A stretch of DNA of 64,000 bases. It comes from Chiloscyllium plagiosum. Its lineage: Eukaryota. This document shows, piece after piece, positions 20,202 through 60,934 of this stretch; position 1 is the stretch's first letter; each line of letters starts with the position of its first letter. The notes beneath the pieces are model-generated. The model did not search any database and was not told the DNA's origin. It worked only from the letters and a program-made list of their open reading frames with translations. The position numbers and the translations under genes are program-made. The DNA is taken from assembly GCF_004010195.1 (NCBI RefSeq), contig NC_057727.1, positions 10,978,132-11,042,131 of the forward strand, given 5' to 3'.

Positions 20202-20390
20202 TAGGCAGCATCTGAAGAGCGGGAAAATTGACATTTCAGGCCAGAGCCCTTCATCAGAAATGGCTGCTGATGAAGGGCTCCAGCCCGAAATGTCAATTTT
20301 CCTGCTCGGATGCTGCCTGACCTGCTGTGCTTTTTCAGCAACACGTTCTCAACTCTGATCTCCAGCATCCGCAGACCTCACTGTCTCCTC
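20202..20390. repeat. Fold-back pair of Penelope pLTR fragments
   Basis: Inverted copies around 20260; CTGATGA-A-GGGCT-CC-AGCCC-GAAAT-GTC. Confidence 0.7.
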
Positions 20391-25878: not shown

Positions 25879-25884
25879 TTTATT
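25879..25884 (-). terminator. GPX poly(A) signal
   Basis: AATAAA on the minus strand, about 40 nt past the SECIS stem. Confidence 0.7.
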
Positions 25885-25920: not shown

Positions 25921-26021
25921 AGTTTCTATGTCCAGTTAGACGTTTACAGGCTACATTAAGTACTTCTCCGTAGACCTTAAGAAAAGTACCATCATACAGT
26001 AAATGCCTAACATCAGAAACT
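25921..26021 (-). promoter_or_regulatory. SECIS element (form 1) with variant core
   Basis: Helix I TTAGGCATTTAC/GTAAACGTCTAA; ATGA (25995-25992); helix II GGTACTTTTCT/GGAGAAGTACT; apical AA 13 nt after ATGA as in GPX1; 3' core reads TAAT, not TGAT. Confidence 0.85.
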
Positions 26022-26350
26022 AGTTTGACTCACTCAGTACAGAAATGAGAATCTCTCTTTGCCCTCCCACTTGCTTTGGGAGAACTTTTTGGCAAGGGCA
26101 TATTGTATGCATTTTTCATTTACAACAAATTACATTCTAAAGAGTGAACAGACAAATTAGAAAAATCACTAAAGCCAATGCAGTAAATGTAATTGCATAC
26201 CTGTTGCTGTATCTCTTAAAATTTACAACTCAATGCATAGTCTTGGCAAAACTTTACTTTAGAAGAAAAACTGCCATCATGTAATATAACACCTAGGATT
26301 CAACATGTAATACACTAAATTTTAACTTATTTATCTGTATCATCACCAAG

Positions 26351-26701
26351 TCATTCATTCTTTGGAAGAAGAAATTTGATGTCATCTTCAACCTCAATGG
26401 TGAGAAAGTTTTTGCTATATCGTCTATATGGCTCACCATTTGGCCCAATAAGGAATTTCTCAAAATTCCAGCCAATATCAGAGCGACGGACTGGCTTCCA
26501 ATCTATAAACTTTGGATCGCGCATTAAGATGTCAGGATCATCATAAGCTTCAGGCAACTTCTTCTTCAGAAAAGTGAAGACTGGATTCTCATCTTCTCCA
26601 TTTACTTCAATCTTTTTGGACAAATAGAAATTTGGTTCAAAGCCATTGCCTGGACGGACATATTTCAAGGAATTAAGGATCTCCTCATTGTAGATATTTT
26701 C
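26351..26701 (-). CDS. GPX1: Glutathione peroxidase 1-like selenoprotein, exon 2
   Basis: ttgtag| [23 protein letters not shown]...[22 protein letters not shown]...PKNE*. Confidence 0.93.
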
Positions 26702-27204
26702 CTACAAAATCAATGTAAAAGTACATTAAACTTGTGGATTTCTAAATTGCAGATTTTTTCTTTCAGGACAAGTCTAAGACCACTATGGAATCACAGTTGA
26801 AACTATTTTGCATAGTATTACTGGGATTAAAATGATGAGTGATTCTATGTTCCTACGTTGCACATTTTTACTTAAACAATAACCAAACAAAAGTCTGAAT
26901 TAATCAAAGATTGACAATTGTTATCACAAACTTTAAGTGAATAAGGAGACTTAAATAAAACTCCTTAAAAGTAAAATTATTTCTGTAAAGTCTGAATTTC
27001 AAATTTGCATCTAAATAGCTATATAAGGTTTGATAACATTTTAATTTTTATCAGAAATATATTAATACGTATAACTGGGTCTGCAATAATATAAATCACT
27101 ATTTAGAATAAGGTTTACACTAAAAGAAACAAGTCAATTAAAACAAGTAGTAAAATGTTCTGCAAGAAAGGAATGTACTTTGTCCTGAAAAGTGTTCAGT
27201 TTAC

Positions 27205-27429
27205 CTGGTAGCCAAATTGGTTGCAAGGAAAACCCAGAATTACAAACCCCTGGTTGCCGTAGCGACTCTGGAGCTCATTCATCTGTTGGTAATCCCTGAT
27301 GGTTGTGCCTCATAAGGATGCAACATTTTCGATCAACACCACCTTTCCTATGAGGTTGGAGAAACTGAAGATCTCACCATTGAGTAGTTCCATAGATAAT
27401 TCATAAAATGTCATTCCATTATCTGCCAT
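27205..27429 (-). CDS. GPX1: Glutathione peroxidase 1-like selenoprotein, exon 1 (Sec40 = TGA at 27312-27310)
   Basis: [75 protein letters not shown] |gtaaac; 191 aa in total; U, Q, W, N tetrad intact. Confidence 0.93.
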
Positions 27430-27647
27430 CTTCCTTGCTAGTATTTAGCACTTTTCTGCAACACACTTAGATACAGGAGCGTTCGTACTTTTGAATAATT
27501 GGAAATGTGCTCAAGATATCAAGTCAGTAACAATCTTTTGAAATTTTTGATACTTTGATCCAAGAAAGAACATCACCACTCTAAGAAAAAAAGACAATAA
27601 ATAAATTACATCTGCGTGCACTCTTGTCTGCAAAACCACCTATGATA

Positions 27648-50275: not shown

Positions 50276-53200
50276 TTATACAGTGGTCTTTCCCCACTGC
50301 GCCTTGGTAGCAGCTGCCACAAGCTTCAGCGCATCCCTCAACACGTAGTTCTGGACCTTGGAATATGCCAGTCTGCAACACTAAGTTGGGGTCAACTCCT
50401 TCAGCTGGAAGATCAACAGATTTCAGGCAGACCAAAGAGCATCTTTGACCGAGTTGATGATCCTCCAGGCACAGTTGATGATCGTCTCGGTGTGCGTCCC
50501 GGGGAACAGACCGTAGAGCATGGAGTCCCACATCACGGAGCTGCTCGGGACGAACCTCGATAAACACCACTGCATTCCTCTCCAGATTTCCTTTGCATAG
50601 GCACATTCCAGAAGGAATGTTTGACAGTCTCGTCCCCTCCACAGCTGCTTTGGGGACAGCATGCGGTGGGGCAGAGTGTCCAGCCGTGCATAAAGGATCT
50701 CACTGGCAGAGCCCTTCTCACCACCAGCCAAGCCAAGTGTTGGTGCTTGTTTGAAAGTTCTGGCAATGAGGCATTCTGCCAAATGACTTTGACAGTCTGC
50801 CCAGGGAACCGCTCGACAGGATCCGCCCTCTACTTTTCCAAAGGGTGTCAAGGACACTACATGCTGACCACTTCCTGATGGACTTGTAGTCAAAGGTGTT
50901 TTTCTTCATAAATTTCTCCACGAAGGACAGGTGATACAGAACGGTCCAACTACTTGGAGCTTTCCATGGCAGCAAGGCCAGGCCCATCCTTCGCAACATC
51001 GGGGACAGGTAGAACCTTAATACGTAGTGATACTTGGTCTTTGCATACCGGGAATCCACACACAGCTTGACACAGCCACACACAAAGGTGGCCATCAGGG
51101 TGAGGGTGGCATTTAGTATGTTTTTTCCCCCATTGCCCAGATCTTTATATGTGGTGTCCCTTCGGACCTGCTCCATCTTTGATCTCCACATGAAGTGGAG
51201 GTTGGCCCGGGTGACTGCGGCGGCACAGGTTCCGGGAATAGGCCAGACCTGTGCCACATATAACAACACTGACAGTACCTCACATCTGATGACAAGGTTT
51301 TTTCCTGCGATGGAGAGCGACCATTGCTCCCATCTGCCTAGTTTTGCCTCACTTTACTGATACGCTTCTCCCAAGACTTGGCGCATGCTCCAGCCCCTCC
51401 GAACCAAATACCCAGCACCTTCAGACGGTCAGTCCTGACGGTGAAGTGGATCGAGGATTGGTTGGCCCAGTTCCCGAAGAGCATGGCCTCGCTCTTGCCT
51501 TGGTTGACCTTGGCCTCCCTTGGCCCGTTTGAACTGGTCACTTATGCACATGAGTCTGTGCACAGACAGTGTATCCAAGCAGAAAACGGCGATGTCTCCA
51601 TGTACAGGGAGGCCTTAACCTGTAGGCCCCTACTGCCAGGAATAGTCACCCCTCTCAGGCTCGTATCCTTCATGATGGACTCAGCAAATGGCTCTATGCA
51701 GCACACAAACAAGGCAGGAGGGAAGCTGTCTGATTCCCACCCATTGATTGAGATTGCACTGACAATATTGGATCCAATTGCAGATTCCCTCCCCAAAGCC
51801 CATTTTGGAGAGAACATCTCTAATATATGTATGCGATATCCTGTCAAAGGCTTTCTCCTGGTCCAGGCTGATGAGGCAAGTGTCCATCCCTCTGTCCTGC
51901 ACATAGGCAATCGTATCCCTGAGGAGTGCGAGACTCTCAGCGATCTTCCTGCCCAGTACAGCACAGGTTAGGTCAGGGTGAATCACCGATCCCAGAGCAG
52001 ACCTGACCCGGTTGGCGATGACTTTTGACAAGATTTTGTAATCTATGTTTAATAGTGAGATTGGTCTCCAATTTCTAATTTCCTCCCTCTCCCCCTTCCG
52101 CTTGTAGATGAGGGTGCTGATGCCTTTCCTCATGGATTCACTCATGGTACCTGCCAGAAGCATACTGACATACACCTCCAGCAGGTCCTGGTCAATCAAG
52201 TCACATAGAGCAGAATAGAGCTCGATCGGTAAGCCATCGCTTTCGGAATTTTTATTCTTTTCAAAGGACTCGAAGGCCTTGGTCAGCTCATCCAGAGATA
52301 GCGGCTGGTCCAGCCTCTCCTCTGTTCTGTCATCTAAGACCTCCGTGACAGAGGACAGGAATGAATTGGAGGCCACGCTGTCAGTTGGCTTCGTGTCATA
52401 CAGACTGGCATGGAAAGATTTGCTGATCCTCCTGATGTCAGCCTGAGATGACTTTACCGAGCCATCTTCTTCCTTCAGGCTGCTGAGCATGGAGTTCTCT
52501 TTGTACACCTTCTGGAAGAAGAAACGTGAGCACGTCTCGTCCTGCTCCACGGAGTGGACCCTGGACCGGAAGATTATCTTGGAGGCCTCCGAGGCAAAGA
52601 GCAGGCTTGCTGGCCCTTCACCTCCTGGAGGTCCTCCGTGACATCGACCCCCATCATCTGCAGCAGGAGCAGGTTCTGCATACTTTCCTGATGTTGGGAC
52701 AGTTTTTCCTGTCTCTCTCTCGCCTCCTGAACACCTTTGAGGATAAAGTACCTCTTCATGTTCCCTTTTAATGTTTCCCACCAGTCTGCTGGGCTTCACA
52801 GTTCTCCAACCTACGTAGTCCCTCTTGAGCTCCTCAGTGTTTCCTGGGGTCAACAGCTTTGTGTTCAGCTTCCAAATTCCCTTATCAGCCCGCTGCTCAT
52901 GCTGTAGGTGACAGTCGGCCAGCAGGAGGCAGTGGTCAGAGAAGAACACCGGCTTGATGTCAGTGGGTCTGACCGAGAACGTTCGGACACAAACAGGTAA
53001 TCTACCCTTGAGCGGATAGACCTGTCTGCCCATGACCAGGTGTATTTACTCTGCGATCCATCTGCACGGGTGCTGAAGACGTTGTGCAGCTTGGCATCTT
53101 TGACTGTTTCCATCAGGAATCTGGACGTGACATCCGGTTTACTTTACCCCCCCACCCCCGCCGCCGGATCGTCCATCTGCATCAATGGTACAGTTGAAGT

Positions 53201-53624
53201 CTCCAGCCAGAACGACCTGCCCGGACATAGCCAGCAACAGTGGAAGCTGCTGCAGGACAGCCAACCGTTCACTCTTACCCACTGGGGCATACACATTAAT
53301 AAGTCTCAGGGGTGCATTCCAGTATATGACGTCAGTGACGAGGAGGCACCCGCCCACCACCTCCTTAACCTCGGAGATGTTGATGATGCCTCCTCGCAGC
53401 TGGATACCGAGGCCTGAGGACCGGTTATCATTGTCCCCCAACCAAAGTGACGGCCCATGGGCCCACAAGCTCAACCATCTCCTGTAACTGCTGAGGTGCG
53501 GTATCCCTCACTCCTGCAGAAACAGGACATCGGCTTTAACATTGGCTAGGAAGGCCAACGTAGAAACACATTGCGTAGCAGATATAATGCTATGCACATT
53601 AATATTCGTGATCTTTATCACCAT
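50276..53624 (-). pseudogene. Copy A ORF2 (endonuclease / reverse transcriptase), frameshifted
   Basis: INVYAP, LAGDFNC, FSDHC, NWRPISLLNIDYKIL, SLDQEKAFDRISH, ETVKH zinc-finger region. Confidence 0.9.
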
Positions 53625-54891
53625 TTTAACAATTTATGAGGTTACCAGTGTACATTTGCCACTGGACCTGCCTCTCTGGGATAGCTGAATGCATCCCCCT
53701 GGTGAATGCGAACTGCTGGACCCTTGCAGGGCTGAGGTAGCTGTCCGGCTCCACGCTGCAGTCACTTCCCCGCTCTGGTGTCATCGGGCCGGGACCAGGG
53801 TCCGCACAGTCCAGTTCTATGTCTGACAGCCCCCTGGTTCTCACCGGGTGGGGGGGGTGGTCTTTACCGGTAACTTCAGAGGGTCCGTCATTTCCTGGTT
53901 GAGGGGTGTTACCCTCCTTTCTCCCCACGGCACTCTGTCTCTTCTTCTGGTGATGACCCTCCTTGCACGCGACTTCAGCATCTGAAGAGCTGCGTGTATC
54001 TTTACCATGCAGCTGCCGTTTCCCCCTTTGCTGGGAGGTTTTGGGGGCCTGGTAGGTTTTCCTCCTCCTGTTTGTTTTTTACAGGAATCCACTCCTCTGC
54101 CTCCATGGTTCCCTCCTCCTCCATTGCCTCCAACTGTCCTGTAGGAGCTTGGATCGGCTGCTGTACCTCCCCGCTGGCTGCCGTATGCTCCGCTTCAGCT
54201 TGTCCTTCCTTCCTTCTGGGTGCCACCAGACACCATTCCCCTCCTGGTTTGTGGTACCTTGCTGGTGTTTTGCAGTCCATGGCTCGCATTGCCACCTCCG
54301 GCCATCTGTGTGTAGGTAGTGGCCCCTCGTCTTGGGCATGCCTTGTACATGTGGCCCGCCTCTCCGCACAGATTACAGCTCTTGGCCTCTTTGCATTCCC
54401 GGGTCAGGTGACCCTCCTGCTTACAGTTCCGACAGATAGTCACCTTACAGTCCGCTGCCCATGTGGCCTGACCTCCCGCAGGTGCGGCAGACTTTCAGCA
54501 GCCCTGCGTATGTCAGGTAACCTCTGCTCCCTCCGATTGCAAAGCTGGAGGGTGGGTAGAGGATGTTCCCAATGGCATGGACCCTGCCGCTGCCGGTCCA
54601 GATCCCGAAAGAGTCAACCACATCAGTGCTTTCTCCCTCAACCAGGACGTGTCTTCTCAGCAAGGTCAGAACGTCAGCTGCTGGGATGTGGGGTTTGTAC
54701 ATGTGAATTGTAACAACCCAACTCCTCTGTGCAGGGAGCACACACAACAGGACTGCCAACAGGATGGAGAACAGAGGCTCCCCTTCCTTGTCTTTGAACA
54801 TGTTAAGGAGCTACTTGCACTGCTTCACACTCCTGTAGGTCGCATTGAAATAGCCTGCCCCAGGGAAATCCTGCAGGCAGTACACATCTAC

Positions 54892-55838
54892 TTTTTATTT
54901 CAAAAATATACTTTTTTCATAAAATTATTTTGATATCTATATAATTTGGTCATGCCATACATATGTATACATTCAATTTCTTTAAATACAGAGATCAGAA
55001 TTGATTATTCATATGTACAAGTCTATACATTGACGATCCAGGTATTTTGCTGAGGCGTCAGCAAGCTCACTTTCTGAGTGGGCCCCCTGTTCTTCTTCGG
55101 CAGGCAGTCCTTACACGGTGGTCTTTCCCCACCGCGCCTTGGCAGCAGCTGCCCCAAGCTTCAGCGCGTCCTTCAGCATGTAGTCCTGGACCTTGGAATG
55201 TGCCAGTCTGCAACACTCAGTCAGGGTCAACTCCTTCAGTTGGAAGATCAACAGGTTTCGGACAGACCAAAGAGCGTCTTTGACCGTGTTGATAATCCTC
55301 CAGACACAGTTAATGCTCGTCTCGGTGTGCGTCCCGGGGAACAGACCGTAGAACACGGAGTCCTGCGTCATGAAGCTGCTCGGGACGCACCACTGTATTC
55401 CTCTCCAGATTTCCTTTGCATAGACACATTCCAGAAGGAGGTGTGTGACAGTCTCGTCCCCTCCACAGCCACTTCAGGGGCAGCATGCATAAAGGATCTC
55501 ACAGGCAGAGCCCTTCTCACCACCAGCCAAGCCATGTCTTGGTGCTTGTTGGAAAGTTCTGGCGATGAGGCATTCTGCCAAATGACTTTGACAGTCTGCC
55601 CAGGGAACCGCTCAACAGGATCCACCCTCTCCTTTTTCCAAAGAGTCTCAAGGACACTACGTGCTGACCATTTCCTGATGGACTTGTGGTCAAAGATATT
55701 TTACTTCATAAATTTCTCCACAAAGGACAGGTGATACGGAAAGGTCCAACGACTTGGAGCGTTCCGCGGCAGTGAGGCCAGGCCCATCCTTCCCAACACC
55801 GGGGACAGGTAGAACCTCAGTATGTAGTGACACCAGGT
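54892..55838 (-). mobile_element. Tx1-clade LINE copy B, 3' ~0.95 kb, inserted in ORF1 of A; its 5' tip lies at 61117-61134
   Basis: Second copy of the 3' UTR and ORF2 C-terminus (..ARWGKTTV*). Confidence 0.88.
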
Positions 55839-56049
55839 TTTTTTTAATTTCAAAAATATACTTTATTCATAAAAATATTTTGATGATCTGTACAATTGGT
55901 CATGCCATACATACGTCAACATCTTTGCATAGAGATATCAAGTAATCATTCGTATATACAGGTCTGTAAGTTTACCGTTCATACATTTAGCTGAGGCGTC
56001 AGTGAAGCCCACTTACTGCGTGGGCCCCTTGTTCTTTGGCAGGCAAACG

Positions 56050-59000
56050 TTACACGGGGTCTTTCCCCACCGCGCCTTGGTGGCAGCTGCCCCACGCTCC
56101 AGCGCGTCCCTCAACACATAGTCCTGGACCTTGGAATTGCCAGTCTGCAACACTCAGTCGGATGCTGCCTGAACTGCTGTGCTCTTCCAGCACCACTAAT
56201 CCACACTCAGTCGGGGTCAGCTCCTTCGGCTGGAAGATCAACAGGTTATGGACAGACCAAAGAGCGTCTTTGACCGAGTTGATGATCCTCCAGGCACAGT
56301 TGATGTTCGTCTCTGTGTGCATCCCAGGGAACAGACTATAAAGCATGGAGTCCCACGTCACGAAGCTGCTCAGGATGAACCTCGACAAGCACCACTGCAT
56401 TCGTATCCAGACTTCCTTTGCGTAGGCACATTCCAGAAGGAGGTGTGTGACAGTTTCATCCCCGCCACAGCCGCTTCGGAGGCAGTGTGCGTTGCGGCAG
56501 AGAGTCCAGGCATGCATAAAGGATCTCACAGGCAGAGCCCTTCTCACCACCAGCCAAGCCATGTCTTGGTGCTTGTTGGAAAGTTCTGGCGATGAGGCAT
56601 TCTGCCATATGACTTTGATAGTCTGCCCAGGGAACCGCTCGACAGGATCCGCCCTCTCCTTTTCTCGAAGGGTCTCAAGGACACTACGTGCTGACCACTT
56701 CCTGATGGACTTGTGGTCAAAGGTGTTTTTCTTCATAAATGTTTCTACGAAGGACAGGTGATATGGAACGGTCCAACTACTTGCAGCGTTCCACAGCAAT
56801 GAGGCCAGGCCCATCCTTCGCAACACCGGGTACAGGTAGAACCTCAGTACGTAGTGACACTTTGTGTTAGCGTACCAGGGATCCACACACAGCTTAATGC
56901 AGCTACACACAAAGGTGTCCATCAGGGTGAGGGTGGCATTTGGTGTGTTTTTTCCCCTGTTGCCCAGAGCTTTGTACATCGAGTCCCTTCGGACCCTGGC
57001 CATCTTTGATTACCATACAAAATGGAAAATGGCCCGGGTGACTGCGATGGCACTGGTTCTGAGAATAGGCCAGAAATGTGCCACATATAACAACACTGAC
57101 AATGCCTCACATCTGATGACCAGGTTTTTACCCGCGATGGAGAGCGACTGTAGCTTCCATCTGCCCAGTTTCTGCCTCACTTTCTTGATACGCTTCCCCC
57201 CAAGACTTGGCGCACGCCCCAGCCCCTCCGAACCAAATACCCAGCACCTTCAGGTGGTCAGTCCTGACGGTGAAGGGGATGAAGGATTGGTCAGCCCAGT
57301 TCCCGAAGAGCGTGGTGTCGCTCTTGCCTCGGTTGACCTTGGCCCCCATGGCCCGTTTGAACTGGTCACTTATGCACAAGAGTCTGTGCACAGACAACGT
57401 ATCCGAGCAGAAAACGGCGACATCATCCATGTACAGGGAAGTCTTAACCTGCAGGCCCCCGCTGCCAGGAATAGTCACCCCTCTCAGGCTCGCATCCTTC
57501 CTGATGGACTCGGCAAATGGCTCTATGCAGCACACAAACAAGGCAGGAGAGAGAAGGCAGCCCTGCCTGACTCCAGATCTGACTGGGAAGCTATCTGATT
57601 CCCACCCATCCATTGAGACTGCACTGACCAGTGTTGGTGTAGAGCTGTCTGATCCAATTGCAGATTCCCTCCCCAAAGCCCATTTTGGAGAGAACATCTC
57701 TCATATACGTATGTGATATCCCGTCAAAAACTTTCTCCTGGTCCAGGCTGATGAGGCAGGTGCCCAAACCCCTGTCCTGCATGTAGGTGATCGTATCCCT
57801 GAGGAGTGCGAGACTCTCAGCAATCTTCCTGCCCAGTACAGCACAGGTTTGGTCAGGGTGGATCACCGATTCCAGAGCAGACCTGATCCGGTTGGCGATG
57901 AGCTTTGCCAAGATTTTGTAATCTGCATTTAACAGTGAGATTGGTCTGCAGTTTCTGATTTCCTCCCTCTTCTCCCTTCCGCTTGTAGATGAAGGTCATG
58001 ATGCCTTTCCTCATCGATTCACTCATGGTACCTGCCAGAAGCATACTGACATACACCTCCAGCAGGTCCTGGCCAATCAAGTCCCACAGGGCAGAATAGA
58101 GCTCGACCGGTAAGCCATTGATTCCGGGAATTTTATTCTTTCCAAAGGACTCTAGGGCCTTGGTCAGTTCATCCAGAGATAGCGGCTGGTCCAGCCTCTC
58201 CCCTGTTCTGTCGTCTAAGACCTCTGTGACAGAGGACTGGAATGACTGGGATGCCACGCTGTCAGTTGACTTGGCGTCATACAGATTGGCACAGCAAGAT
58301 TTGCTGATCCTCATGACGTCAGCCTGAGATGACATTACCGAGCCATCTTCTTCCTTCAGGCTGCTGAGCATGGAGCTCTCTTTGTGCACCTTCTGGAAGA
58401 AGAAACGTGAGCACGTCTCGTCCTGCTCCACGGAGTGGACCCTGGACCAGAAGGTTATCTTGGATGCCTCCGAGGCAAAGAGCAAGGCTTGCTGGCCCTT
58501 CACCTCCTGGAGGTCCTCCGTGACATCGACCCCCATCGTCTGCAGCAGGAGCAGGTTCTGCATACTTTCCTGGAGTTGGGACAGTTTTCCCCTCTCTCTC
58601 GTCTCCTGAACACTTTTGAGGATGAAGAACCTCTTATTGTTCCCTTTTACTGTTTCCTACCAGTCCGGTGGAAACTCAAAGAGGGACTTCACGGTTCTCC
58701 AACCTGCGTGGTCCCTCTTGAGCTCCTCAATGTTTCCCGGGGTCAACAGCTTGGTGTTCAGCTTCCACATTCCCTTGCCAGCCCGCTGCTTGTCTTGTAG
58801 GTGACAGTCGGCCAGCAGGAGGCAGTGGTTAGAAAAGAACACTGGCTTGATGTCAGTGGATTTGACAGAGAACGTTCGGACACAAACAGGTAATCTATCC
58901 TTGAGCAGATAGACCTGCCTGCCCTTGACCAGGTGTATCTACGCTGCGATCCATCTGCAGGGGTGCTGCAGACGTCGTGTAGCTTGGCATCTTTGACCGT

Positions 59001-59507
59001 TTCCATCAGGACTCTGGACGTGGTGTCCAGTTTACTGTCCCCCCCACTGGATTGTCCATCTGTATCAATGATACAGCTGAAGTCTCTAGCCAGAATGACT
59101 GGCCTGGACGTAGCCAGCAACAGTGGAAGCTGCTGCAGGAGGGCCAACCGTTCACTCTTACCTGTTGGGGTGTACATGTTAATCAGTCTCAGGGGAGCGA
59201 TTCTGTGCATGACGTCAGCGATGAGGAGGAGCCCACCCACCACCTCCTTAACTTCAGAGATGGTGAAGTTGCCTCCTTGCAACAGGATACCCAGGCCAGA
59301 GGCGCGGCTGTCGTTGCCCCCCAACCAAACTGATGGTTCATGGGCCCACGAGCTTGACCATCTCCTGTAGCTGCTGAGGTGCGGTATCCCACACTCCTGC
59401 AGAAACAGGACATCGGCTTTAACGTTGGCTAGGAAGGCCAGCGTAGAGACACATTGCGTAGCAGATTTAATGCTACGCACATTAATACTGGCAATTTTTA
59501 TACCCAT
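56050..59507 (-). pseudogene. Copy C ORF2 (APE endonuclease, RT, zinc finger), frameshifted
   Basis: MGIKIASINVRSI..LFLQEC, GVRQGCLLSP, LYMDD, ETVTHLLLEC. Confidence 0.92.
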
Positions 59508-59508
59508 T

Positions 59509-60934
59509 TTAACAGTTTATGAGGTTACCAGTGTCTATTTTCTGTTGGTCCAGCCTCTCTGGGGTAGGTATCTGCATTCCTGTGGTGAACACGAACTGCT
59601 GGACACTCTGAGGGCTGAGGTAGCTGTCCGGCTCCATGCTGCAGGCATTTCCATGCTCTGGTGTCTTCAGGTCGGGACCAGAGTTCGCAGCGGGGCTGTC
59701 AGAGGATTGCTGCTCCCAGTTACCTGGAACTGTGGGGCAGTGGGTACCTCCTGGTTCTCACCGGGTGGGGGGGTGGTCTTTACCAGCCCCCTCAGAGGGT
59801 TCGTCATTTCCTGTTTGGGGGGTGCTGCCCTCCTTTCTCCCTGCGGCACTCTGTCTCTTGGTGAAGACCCTCCTTACGCCCATCCTCACCATCTGAAGAG
59901 CTGGCTGTATCCTCCTCATGTAGGTGTCGTTTCCCCCTTTGCTGGGTGGTTTGGGGAACTGGCCAGGTTTCCACTTGCTGGTTTTTACAAGAGTCCAGTC
60001 CTCTGCCTCCTTGGTTTGCTTCTCCTCCATTTCCTCCGTCTATCCTGTGGGAGCTTGGATTGGCTGCTGCACCTCCCCACTGGCTGCCATCTGCTCCGCT
60101 CCATTCTTCTGGGTGCCCCCAGACACCATTTCCCTGATGGTTTGTGGTACCTTGCTGGCCTTTTGCAGTCCACGGCTCGCATTGCCATCTCCAGCCATCT
60201 GTGCGTAGGTGGTGGTCCCTCGTCTTGGGCAGGCTTTGTACACGTGGCCCGCCTCTGCACAGATTGCAGTTCTTGGCTTCTTTGCATTCCTTAGTGGGTG
60301 ACCCTCCTTCTTGCAGTTTCGACAAATGGTGACCTTACAGTCCGCCGCCATGTGGCCTGACCTCCCGCAGGTTCGGCACACTTTCGGCTGCCCTGCGTAC
60401 ATCATGTACCCTCTGCTCCCTCCGATTGCAAAGCTGGAGGTTGGGTGGAGGATGTTCCCACTGGCATCGACCCTGACAGTTATCCTGACCTGCCGTTTGC
60501 TGGTCCAGATCCCGAAAGGGTTGACCACATTGGTGCTTTCTCCCTCAACCTGGACGTACCTTCTCAGGAAGTTCAGGACGTCAGCTGCTGGGACGTGGGG
60601 GTTGTACATATGAATCGTAACCACCCCACTCCTCTGTGCAGGAAACACACACAACGGGACCGCCAACAAGATGGAGAACAGAGGCTCCCGTTCCTTCTCC
60701 TTGAAGACCTTCAGGAGCTGCTCACACTGCTTCACACTCCTGAAGGTCACATTGAAATAGCCTGTCCCAGGAAAATCCTGCAGGCAGTACACATCTGCTG
60801 CATCAAACCCGCAGCACTCCAGCAGAACCTTCTTGACGAACACCCTCCGATCGACCGGTGTACGATCCTTCACCTTCTTCACCTTCAACACCTGACTGTG
60901 TTGCGAATGCCCTGGTCTGGGCTGCAGATGTCAT
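59509..60934 (-). pseudogene. Copy C ORF1 (Tx1/ZCCHC3-like zinc-knuckle protein), frameshifted
   Basis: GIRNTVR, GIWTSKRQV, YAGQPKVCRTCGRSGHMAADC, CRNCKKEGH; its stop is 1 nt before the ORF2 ATG (TAA-A-ATG). Confidence 0.85.

Follow-up and report, generated by a model that had tools for sequence, protein, structure and literature searches.

A SECIS hairpin with AA in place of the 3' GA of its core in a GPX1-type gene of Chiloscyllium plagiosum

SECIS cores and their kink-turn relatives

According to the available text of PMC3316567, the GA/GA core was found in every vertebrate SECIS examined, and PMC2647825, in its available part, calls UGA/GA invariable, except for the GGA/GA of Toxoplasma and Neospora SelT. 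As described in the available text of PMC3753652, all SECISearch patterns demand NGAN, and a core must carry GA-GA to pass the SECISearch3 filter. The invariance of GA/GA is thus partly built into the searches, since SECISearch3 discards candidates that lack it. In the literature searched, neither a natural GA/AA SECIS nor a single G2nA SECIS mutant was found; the late-1990s papers on core mutagenesis and the cryo-EM paper on the ribosome-SBP2-SECIS complex fall outside this scope and may contain such a mutant. The available text of PMC12628022, PMC2375036, and PMC3706390 holds neither a natural GA/AA case nor a G2nA SECIS mutant.

In the kink-turn (k-turn) nomenclature of PMC3985660, which was mapped onto the SECIS by the present authors, the G of the 3' GA occupies position 2n. 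Non-standard k-turns differ most often at 2b.2n (PMC5061560, available text). A natural A.A pair at 2b.2n, isosteric with G.A, is described in the accessible part of PMC3985660 for Kt-23 of Thelohania solenopsae, the structure of which was solved bound to L7Ae. As reported in the accessible part of PMC3651934, the SAM-I riboswitch with G2nA still binds its ligand (Kd 0.31 vs 0.54 uM), A1nC abolishes binding, and G2nA prevents an isolated k-turn from undergoing ion-induced folding. K-turns with A at 2n, both natural and engineered, thus fold when aided by a protein or a tertiary contact. The k-turn literature found, as far as its available text goes, makes no mention of SECIS. With regard to the proteins, Asn33 of L7Ae bonds O6 of G2n (PMC5061560), and SELEX with SBP2 recovered G at this pair in every RNA (PMC1874613), both according to the available text. 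The activities of human SECIS elements in cells range several thousand-fold, as stated in the available part of PMC2761289.

The available text of PMC13134290 reports a Sec-bearing GPX1 duplicate of chondrichthyans, GPX1c, and does not describe the SECIS of GPX1 or GPX1c. GPX1 mRNA is named a known target of NMD in the available parts of PMC8704476 and PMC7602710. The element analyzed here departs from the SECIS core consensus; the departure is real, shared, and specific to this one gene, which is of the known GPX1 type and under purifying selection.

The GPX1-type gene and its SECIS hairpin

The analyzed window is a stretch of 64,000 nt of the C. plagiosum genome (contig NC_057727.1, positions 10,978,132 to 11,042,131). 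Its minus strand contains an ORF of 191 codons in two coding exons (27429-27205 and 26701-26351) with a UGA at codon 40. The translated portion of the first coding exon (27205-27429, 75 codons) matches Pfam GSHPx with E 7.5e-25, and 60 of 74 residues are identical to the ray orthologue P0079. The W of P0079 at the Sec site presumably stands for a UGA, since a W is likewise shown in fish entries for GPX1 that come from the same sources. A protein search for longer exon-1 homologues gave four matches, none clearly chondrichthyan. The GT-AG intron (26702-27204) comprises 503 nt, and a joint skipping 503 nt is present in sequencing runs X6 and X20. The last coding exon (26351-26701), which encodes Trp153, Asn154, and the stop codon, matches GPX2 and GPX1 of the PDB with E values of 1e-48 to 2e-43. 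The predicted protein contains a GSHPx domain together with Sec40, Gln75, Trp153, and Asn154, the GPX catalytic tetrad. The earlier note on this DNA was right in describing the ORF, the splice sites, and the tetrad as intact.

Orthologues of the gene were found in sharks, rays, and a chimaera, and the nearest matches are named GPX1-like. Identity in exon 2 is 98% with Chiloscyllium punctatum, 91% with Scyliorhinus torazame, 80-82% with three rays, and 63% with Callorhinchus milii. In the constructed tree, a clade of seven shark, ray, and chimaera rows stood apart from GPX2 (support 93/84, which is under the starred threshold), and a second gene of the genome, located on contig C10, clustered with GPX2 (98/96). 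The gene family is thus already known, the gene being a member of the chondrichthyan GPX1/GPX1c pair.

The in-frame UGA (27310-27312, minus strand) lies 105 nt ahead of the intron, and no change is listed there in the organism B contig discussed below. The spacing in mammalian GPX1 is identical according to the available text of PMC7602710, which bears out the reasoning of the earlier note that failed recoding should expose the transcript to NMD. No clearly stable hairpin was detected 3' of the UGA, where 55 nt fold with -9.0 kcal/mol, a value without shuffle control. Further upstream, a pyrimidine tract followed by AG is located at 27580-27600 on the minus strand, exactly where the broken copy of the gene on contig C33 starts and an X6 contig ends; it may be the acceptor belonging to a non-coding exon further upstream. 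The 5' flank of the C33 copy gave no matching exon nearby.

The SECIS hairpin of the gene occupies 101 nt on the minus strand (26021-25921). Its 5' core AUGAU (25991-25995) consists of A25995 and UGAU (25994-25991), in which U corresponds to L3, G to 1b, A to 2b, and U to 3b. The 3' core UAAU (25955-25958) contains A25957 in place of the expected G at 2n, followed by A25956, the conserved 1n; the core as a whole is AUGA-U / U-AA-U. Helix II and a 10-nt apical loop (25959-25990) separate the two halves of the core. Helix II pairs 25990-25980 with 25969-25959 in 11 of 11 positions, three of the pairs being G.U, and the apical AA (25978-25977) lies 12 nt past the 5' core, where 11-13 nt are expected; the element is of the type I form. 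In the predicted fold, helix I (5' arm 25999-26011, paired with 25935-25947) and an internal loop underlie the core, and helix I is homologous in the tandem paralogue. A basal helix (5' arm 26014-26021, paired with 25921-25928) is also predicted, and in the tandem paralogue a basal helix of different sequence folds at the equivalent place. The anatomy reported earlier, namely the helices, ATGA, the apical AA, and the TAAT 3' core, was confirmed by both the sequence and the predicted fold. The AATAAA polyadenylation signal (25879-25884, minus strand) is located 3' of the SECIS, and the spliced X6 contig stops at 25846.

The 101-nt fold has an energy of -28.6 kcal/mol and a z-score of -3.13 (1 of 200 shuffles equally stable); with the core constrained to be unpaired, the energy is -28.0 kcal/mol. 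When the interval 26350-25700 was scanned with the 2n base left free, four candidates formed 8 or more of 11 pairs, and 11 of 11 pairs were found in the element at 25957 alone. Helix II of this element has no alternative register with a GA core. The Rfam family SECIS_1 (RF00031) did not match the element at E<=10, and the tandem paralogue scored 36.6 bits in the same search.

Two further features of the window lie away from the gene. Remains of a LINE-type retroelement (51684-60930, minus strand) comprise RVT_1, zf-RVT, and endonuclease domains as well as an ORF that encodes a zinc knuckle and ZCCHC3-like RNA-binding domains; of the 109 listed ORFs of the window, 19 long ones were scanned, and four of these gave such retroelement domains. 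A near-perfect inverted repeat at 20226-20298 with sub-threshold matches to miRNA families is probably a repeat-derived hairpin.

Sequencing runs, related loci, and rival explanations

In organism A, the source species, runs X1, X8, and X6 from three studies span position 25957 without a difference; none of them is flagged as the source of the window. The genomic A is thus carried by these runs, and the TGAT considered in the earlier note was not seen in them. X6 is a spliced contig that extends from exon 1 through the SECIS and links the UGA to the SECIS in one transcript. Raw reads of X21 (~2% of the run read) gave 0 hits on the stretch, a result that says nothing on expression or editing. 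In organism B, a 947-nt contig of X16 covers 25957, located 177 nt from the contig end, with no change listed at this position. All seven listed T-changes of X16 fall away from it, and the 6 of 30 differing letters that are not listed presumably lie near the contig ends. The A at 2n is thus common to a second species on the evidence of this one contig; X17 ends 11 nt away, and differences there are not listed. X18 and X20 (organism C) stop short of the SECIS, and X18 is identical to the window where X20 differs, despite the same organism label. A scan of metagenomes for orthologues gave 80 loci with a best identity of 50%, no orthologue, and no UTR past that of organism B. In contigs of X1, X16, and X17, exon 2 continues unspliced into the intron (26702-26785), and those of X6 and X20 are spliced; the unspliced contigs are compatible with DNA, pre-mRNA, or intron retention.

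The genome additionally holds a tandem paralogue ~49 kb away, the GPX2-like gene on C10, and the broken copy on C33. Besides the window gene, four Sec-GPX loci that look intact were examined with no base prescribed at 2n: the tandem paralogue, the GPX2-like gene, a GPX3-like gene on C14, and a GPX4-like locus on C31. All four have GA/GA cores, some of them with Rfam support; the deviation is therefore specific to the window gene and not genome-wide. A second GPX3-like locus (G000:C38 6890010-6890147, L115/L013) was kept out of this count, having a stop in or after the exon and a weak SECIS candidate ~3 kb on (6 of 10 pairs ungapped); it may be a broken gene or contain a further intron. A genome-wide RF00031 search, in which 129 of 65,580 candidates were scored, gave no match and missed the controls too, and is thus uninformative.

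The SECIS of the tandem paralogue (L020, G000:C18 11054909-11055112) shows clear homology to that of the window gene, and its helix II differs by double-sided pair changes. The paralogue encodes Ser after the UGA and Val upstream of it, whereas both the window gene and the GPX2-like gene encode Gly and Glu at these two sites; it forms a long branch in the tree. The 2n base is G in the tandem paralogue and C in the C33 copy; the latter cannot date the G-to-A change, since either order takes two steps. The C33 copy (G000:C33 37256677-37261444; L002, L004, L005) is 83-93% identical to the gene. It is devoid of the first coding exon and intron, via a join that is no splice site, and contains stops, a frameshift, and a 3,832-nt insertion splitting the basal helix of the SECIS. 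Similar repeat sequence is present on both flanks, as if the copy had been carried by a mobile element.

The best-surviving alternative to a working AA core, though an improbable one, is that the element is largely inactive and the protein is made either by SECIS-independent readthrough of the UGA or with a weak hairpin further upstream in the UTR (26240-26280, minus strand) as a back-up SECIS. The literature describes GA/GA as required, and the upstream hairpin carries AUGA, AAA, and a GA. In addition, the conservation of the main element between organisms A and B, with one change in 101 nt versus 18 in 450 nt of UTR, is not significant (p 0.08 binomial, 0.22 Fisher), and the single change of organism B unpairs the uppermost wobble in helix II. 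The upstream hairpin is nevertheless deemed an unlikely SECIS: it forms 8 of 11 pairs and needs a bulge at the core, its AAA is 16 nt out instead of 11-13, its z-score is +0.69 (151 of 200 shuffles as stable), and two of its sites differ in organism B, while the main element retains every other SECIS feature. The likeness of this hairpin to the SECIS is not significant, as the best local match lies elsewhere in the UTR and 108 of 1000 shuffles were as good.

It is still less likely that the SECIS is dead and that the gene is an early pseudogene backed up by the tandem paralogue 49 kb off, one of the possibilities raised in the earlier note. A Sec-bearing GPX1 paralogue with a normal SECIS does exist, the related C33 copy is likewise without G at 2n, and the lineage underwent an older burst of amino acid change. 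The lineage-specific residue changes relative to S. torazame number 7 vs 0 when two of the rays serve as outgroups and 4 vs 2 when a third does; this burst predates the C33 copy, which agrees with the window protein at all 10 sites that could be scored. The comparison of organisms A and B speaks strongly against decay. Exon 2, which lies downstream of the UGA and to which this test is confined, shows 0 nonsynonymous and 4 synonymous changes, the same four in X16 and X17. At the rate of the UTR (18 changes in 450 nt, ~4% divergence), ~11 nonsynonymous changes are expected under neutrality (P(0) 1.4e-5, Fisher p 0.0014). If both species inherited the A from their common ancestor, this divergence accrued with A at 2n. 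Organism C (X20) has two conservative amino acid changes and one silent change; the two changed residues also separate the window protein from P0002 and were therefore counted as one observation. With organisms B and C pooled, silent changes are still favoured (p 0.004). In the comparison with the C33 copy (87% identical), all 22 of the nonsynonymous codon differences fall on the branch of the copy when S. torazame serves as the outgroup; no amino acid change has occurred in exon 2 of the window gene since the copy arose. The contigs of X6 and X20, moreover, are spliced. These data show purifying selection on the protein 3' of the UGA while both species carried A at 2n.

The restriction of this test to exon 2 leaves some room for a view slightly less probable again, that a Sec-less protein of 142 residues, starting at a second AUG 3' of the UGA, is the selected product; databases annotate the orthologues P0002, P0003, and P0075 from that Met. 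Such truncated annotation is, however, an artefact of a UGA read as a stop, since ordinary GPX1 entries (P0039) are truncated likewise, and conservation as far as rays extends to the UGA as well as to the region 5' of it. A-to-I editing at 25957, also suggested earlier as a source of a G-like base in some of the mRNA, is equally doubtful. Position 25957 adjoins a long duplex, and a NAIM study cited in PMC3651934 suggests, as far as the available text goes, that folding is possible with inosine at 2n; the one spliced contig (X6), however, has the genomic base and lends editing no support, although contigs drop minority variants and low-level editing would be hidden. Finally, a base-call error or private allele of organism A is rejected and has next to no probability, since three studies of organism A and a single contig of organism B agree on the base and nothing was found in its favour.

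Proposed function of the AA core and comparison with known systems

The A common to a second species and the conserved protein make it likely that the SECIS still functions. The AA-core element is probably a functional, SBP2-dependent, and presumably weaker SECIS, which would direct Sec insertion at UGA40 via a rarer A.A k-turn pair. In support of this reading, helix II retains 11 of 11 pairs and the apical AA, whereas the SECIS remnant of the dead C33 copy pairs at 9 of 11 positions and has no AA. With U(L3), G1b.A1n, and A2b kept, A2b.A2n could adopt an isosteric trans Hoogsteen/sugar geometry, held by a single hydrogen bond. Kinking would then take place mainly upon binding of SBP2, aided by the long helices on both sides. 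Two SBP2-type L7Ae domains with the GLREV motif are encoded in the genome; they seem to have Arg at the position matching Asn33 of L7Ae and may dislike A at 2n. Sec insertion could then be reduced relative to the GA/GA tandem paralogue and yet be sufficient. Because the UGA lies 105 nt before the junction, lower efficiency would leave this copy more exposed to NMD when selenium or SBP2 is short.

A bolder version of the functional reading is conceivable, though we hold it rather doubtful: the AA core may be an old feature under selection in many sharks, giving a SECIS that is weak by design, with the kink confined to the SBP2-bound state, and that ranks this paralogue below its GA/GA neighbour in the selenium hierarchy. 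It would then be the first natural member of a class of 2n-variant SECIS elements that GA-GA filters have so far removed. If the AA-core SECIS is functional, it violates what search tools handle as an absolute requirement, and SECIS searches need a relaxed filter; furthermore, 2n variants in selenoprotein UTRs need not be null. Side by side with its GA/GA paralogue, the AA SECIS offers a natural comparison by which to learn if SBP2 recognizes G2n or just the kinked shape.

Consistent with the chondrichthyan GPX1/GPX1c pair, this genome has two Sec-bearing genes of GPX1 type, which lie in tandem. The SelT SECIS of Toxoplasma and Neospora, as described in the available text of PMC2647825, is likewise a natural departure from the core; there the 5' U is changed and both G.A pairs are kept, whereas in the shark SECIS one G.A pair itself is changed.

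The shark element resembles Kt-23 and the G2nA SAM-I riboswitch in that A takes the place of G at 2n while G1b, A1n, and A2b are retained, which corresponds to the sequence of an A.A k-turn. The changed base is the one core base with such precedent, an identity with 2n that the earlier note had missed. SBP2, the reader of SECIS, belongs to the L7Ae family, the family that binds Kt-23. In contrast, Kt-23 and SAM-I have a 3-nt bulge and are known in the context of archaeal L7Ae or a riboswitch, whereas the shark element has an internal loop instead of the simple bulge, as SECIS elements generally do, its reader SBP2 is stricter, and its kink is putative.

The closest likeness is to the type I SECIS of GPX1 and GPX2 (RF00031; UGAN/KGAW). 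The shark hairpin occupies the same place in the 3' UTR of a UGA-bearing transcript, before the poly(A) signal, and has the same AUGA (a RUGA core), the same U.U third pair, an 11-bp helix II (range 11-16), and the AA 12 nt above the core. It differs in having AA (25957-25956) for the 3' GA and in the missing RF00031 match, and neither the four SECISearch patterns nor the GA-GA filter of SECISearch3, as written, would accept it. Since the defining feature, the 3' GA, fails, the hairpin lies outside the canonical SECIS consensus, yet on balance it is expected to work like a member of it.
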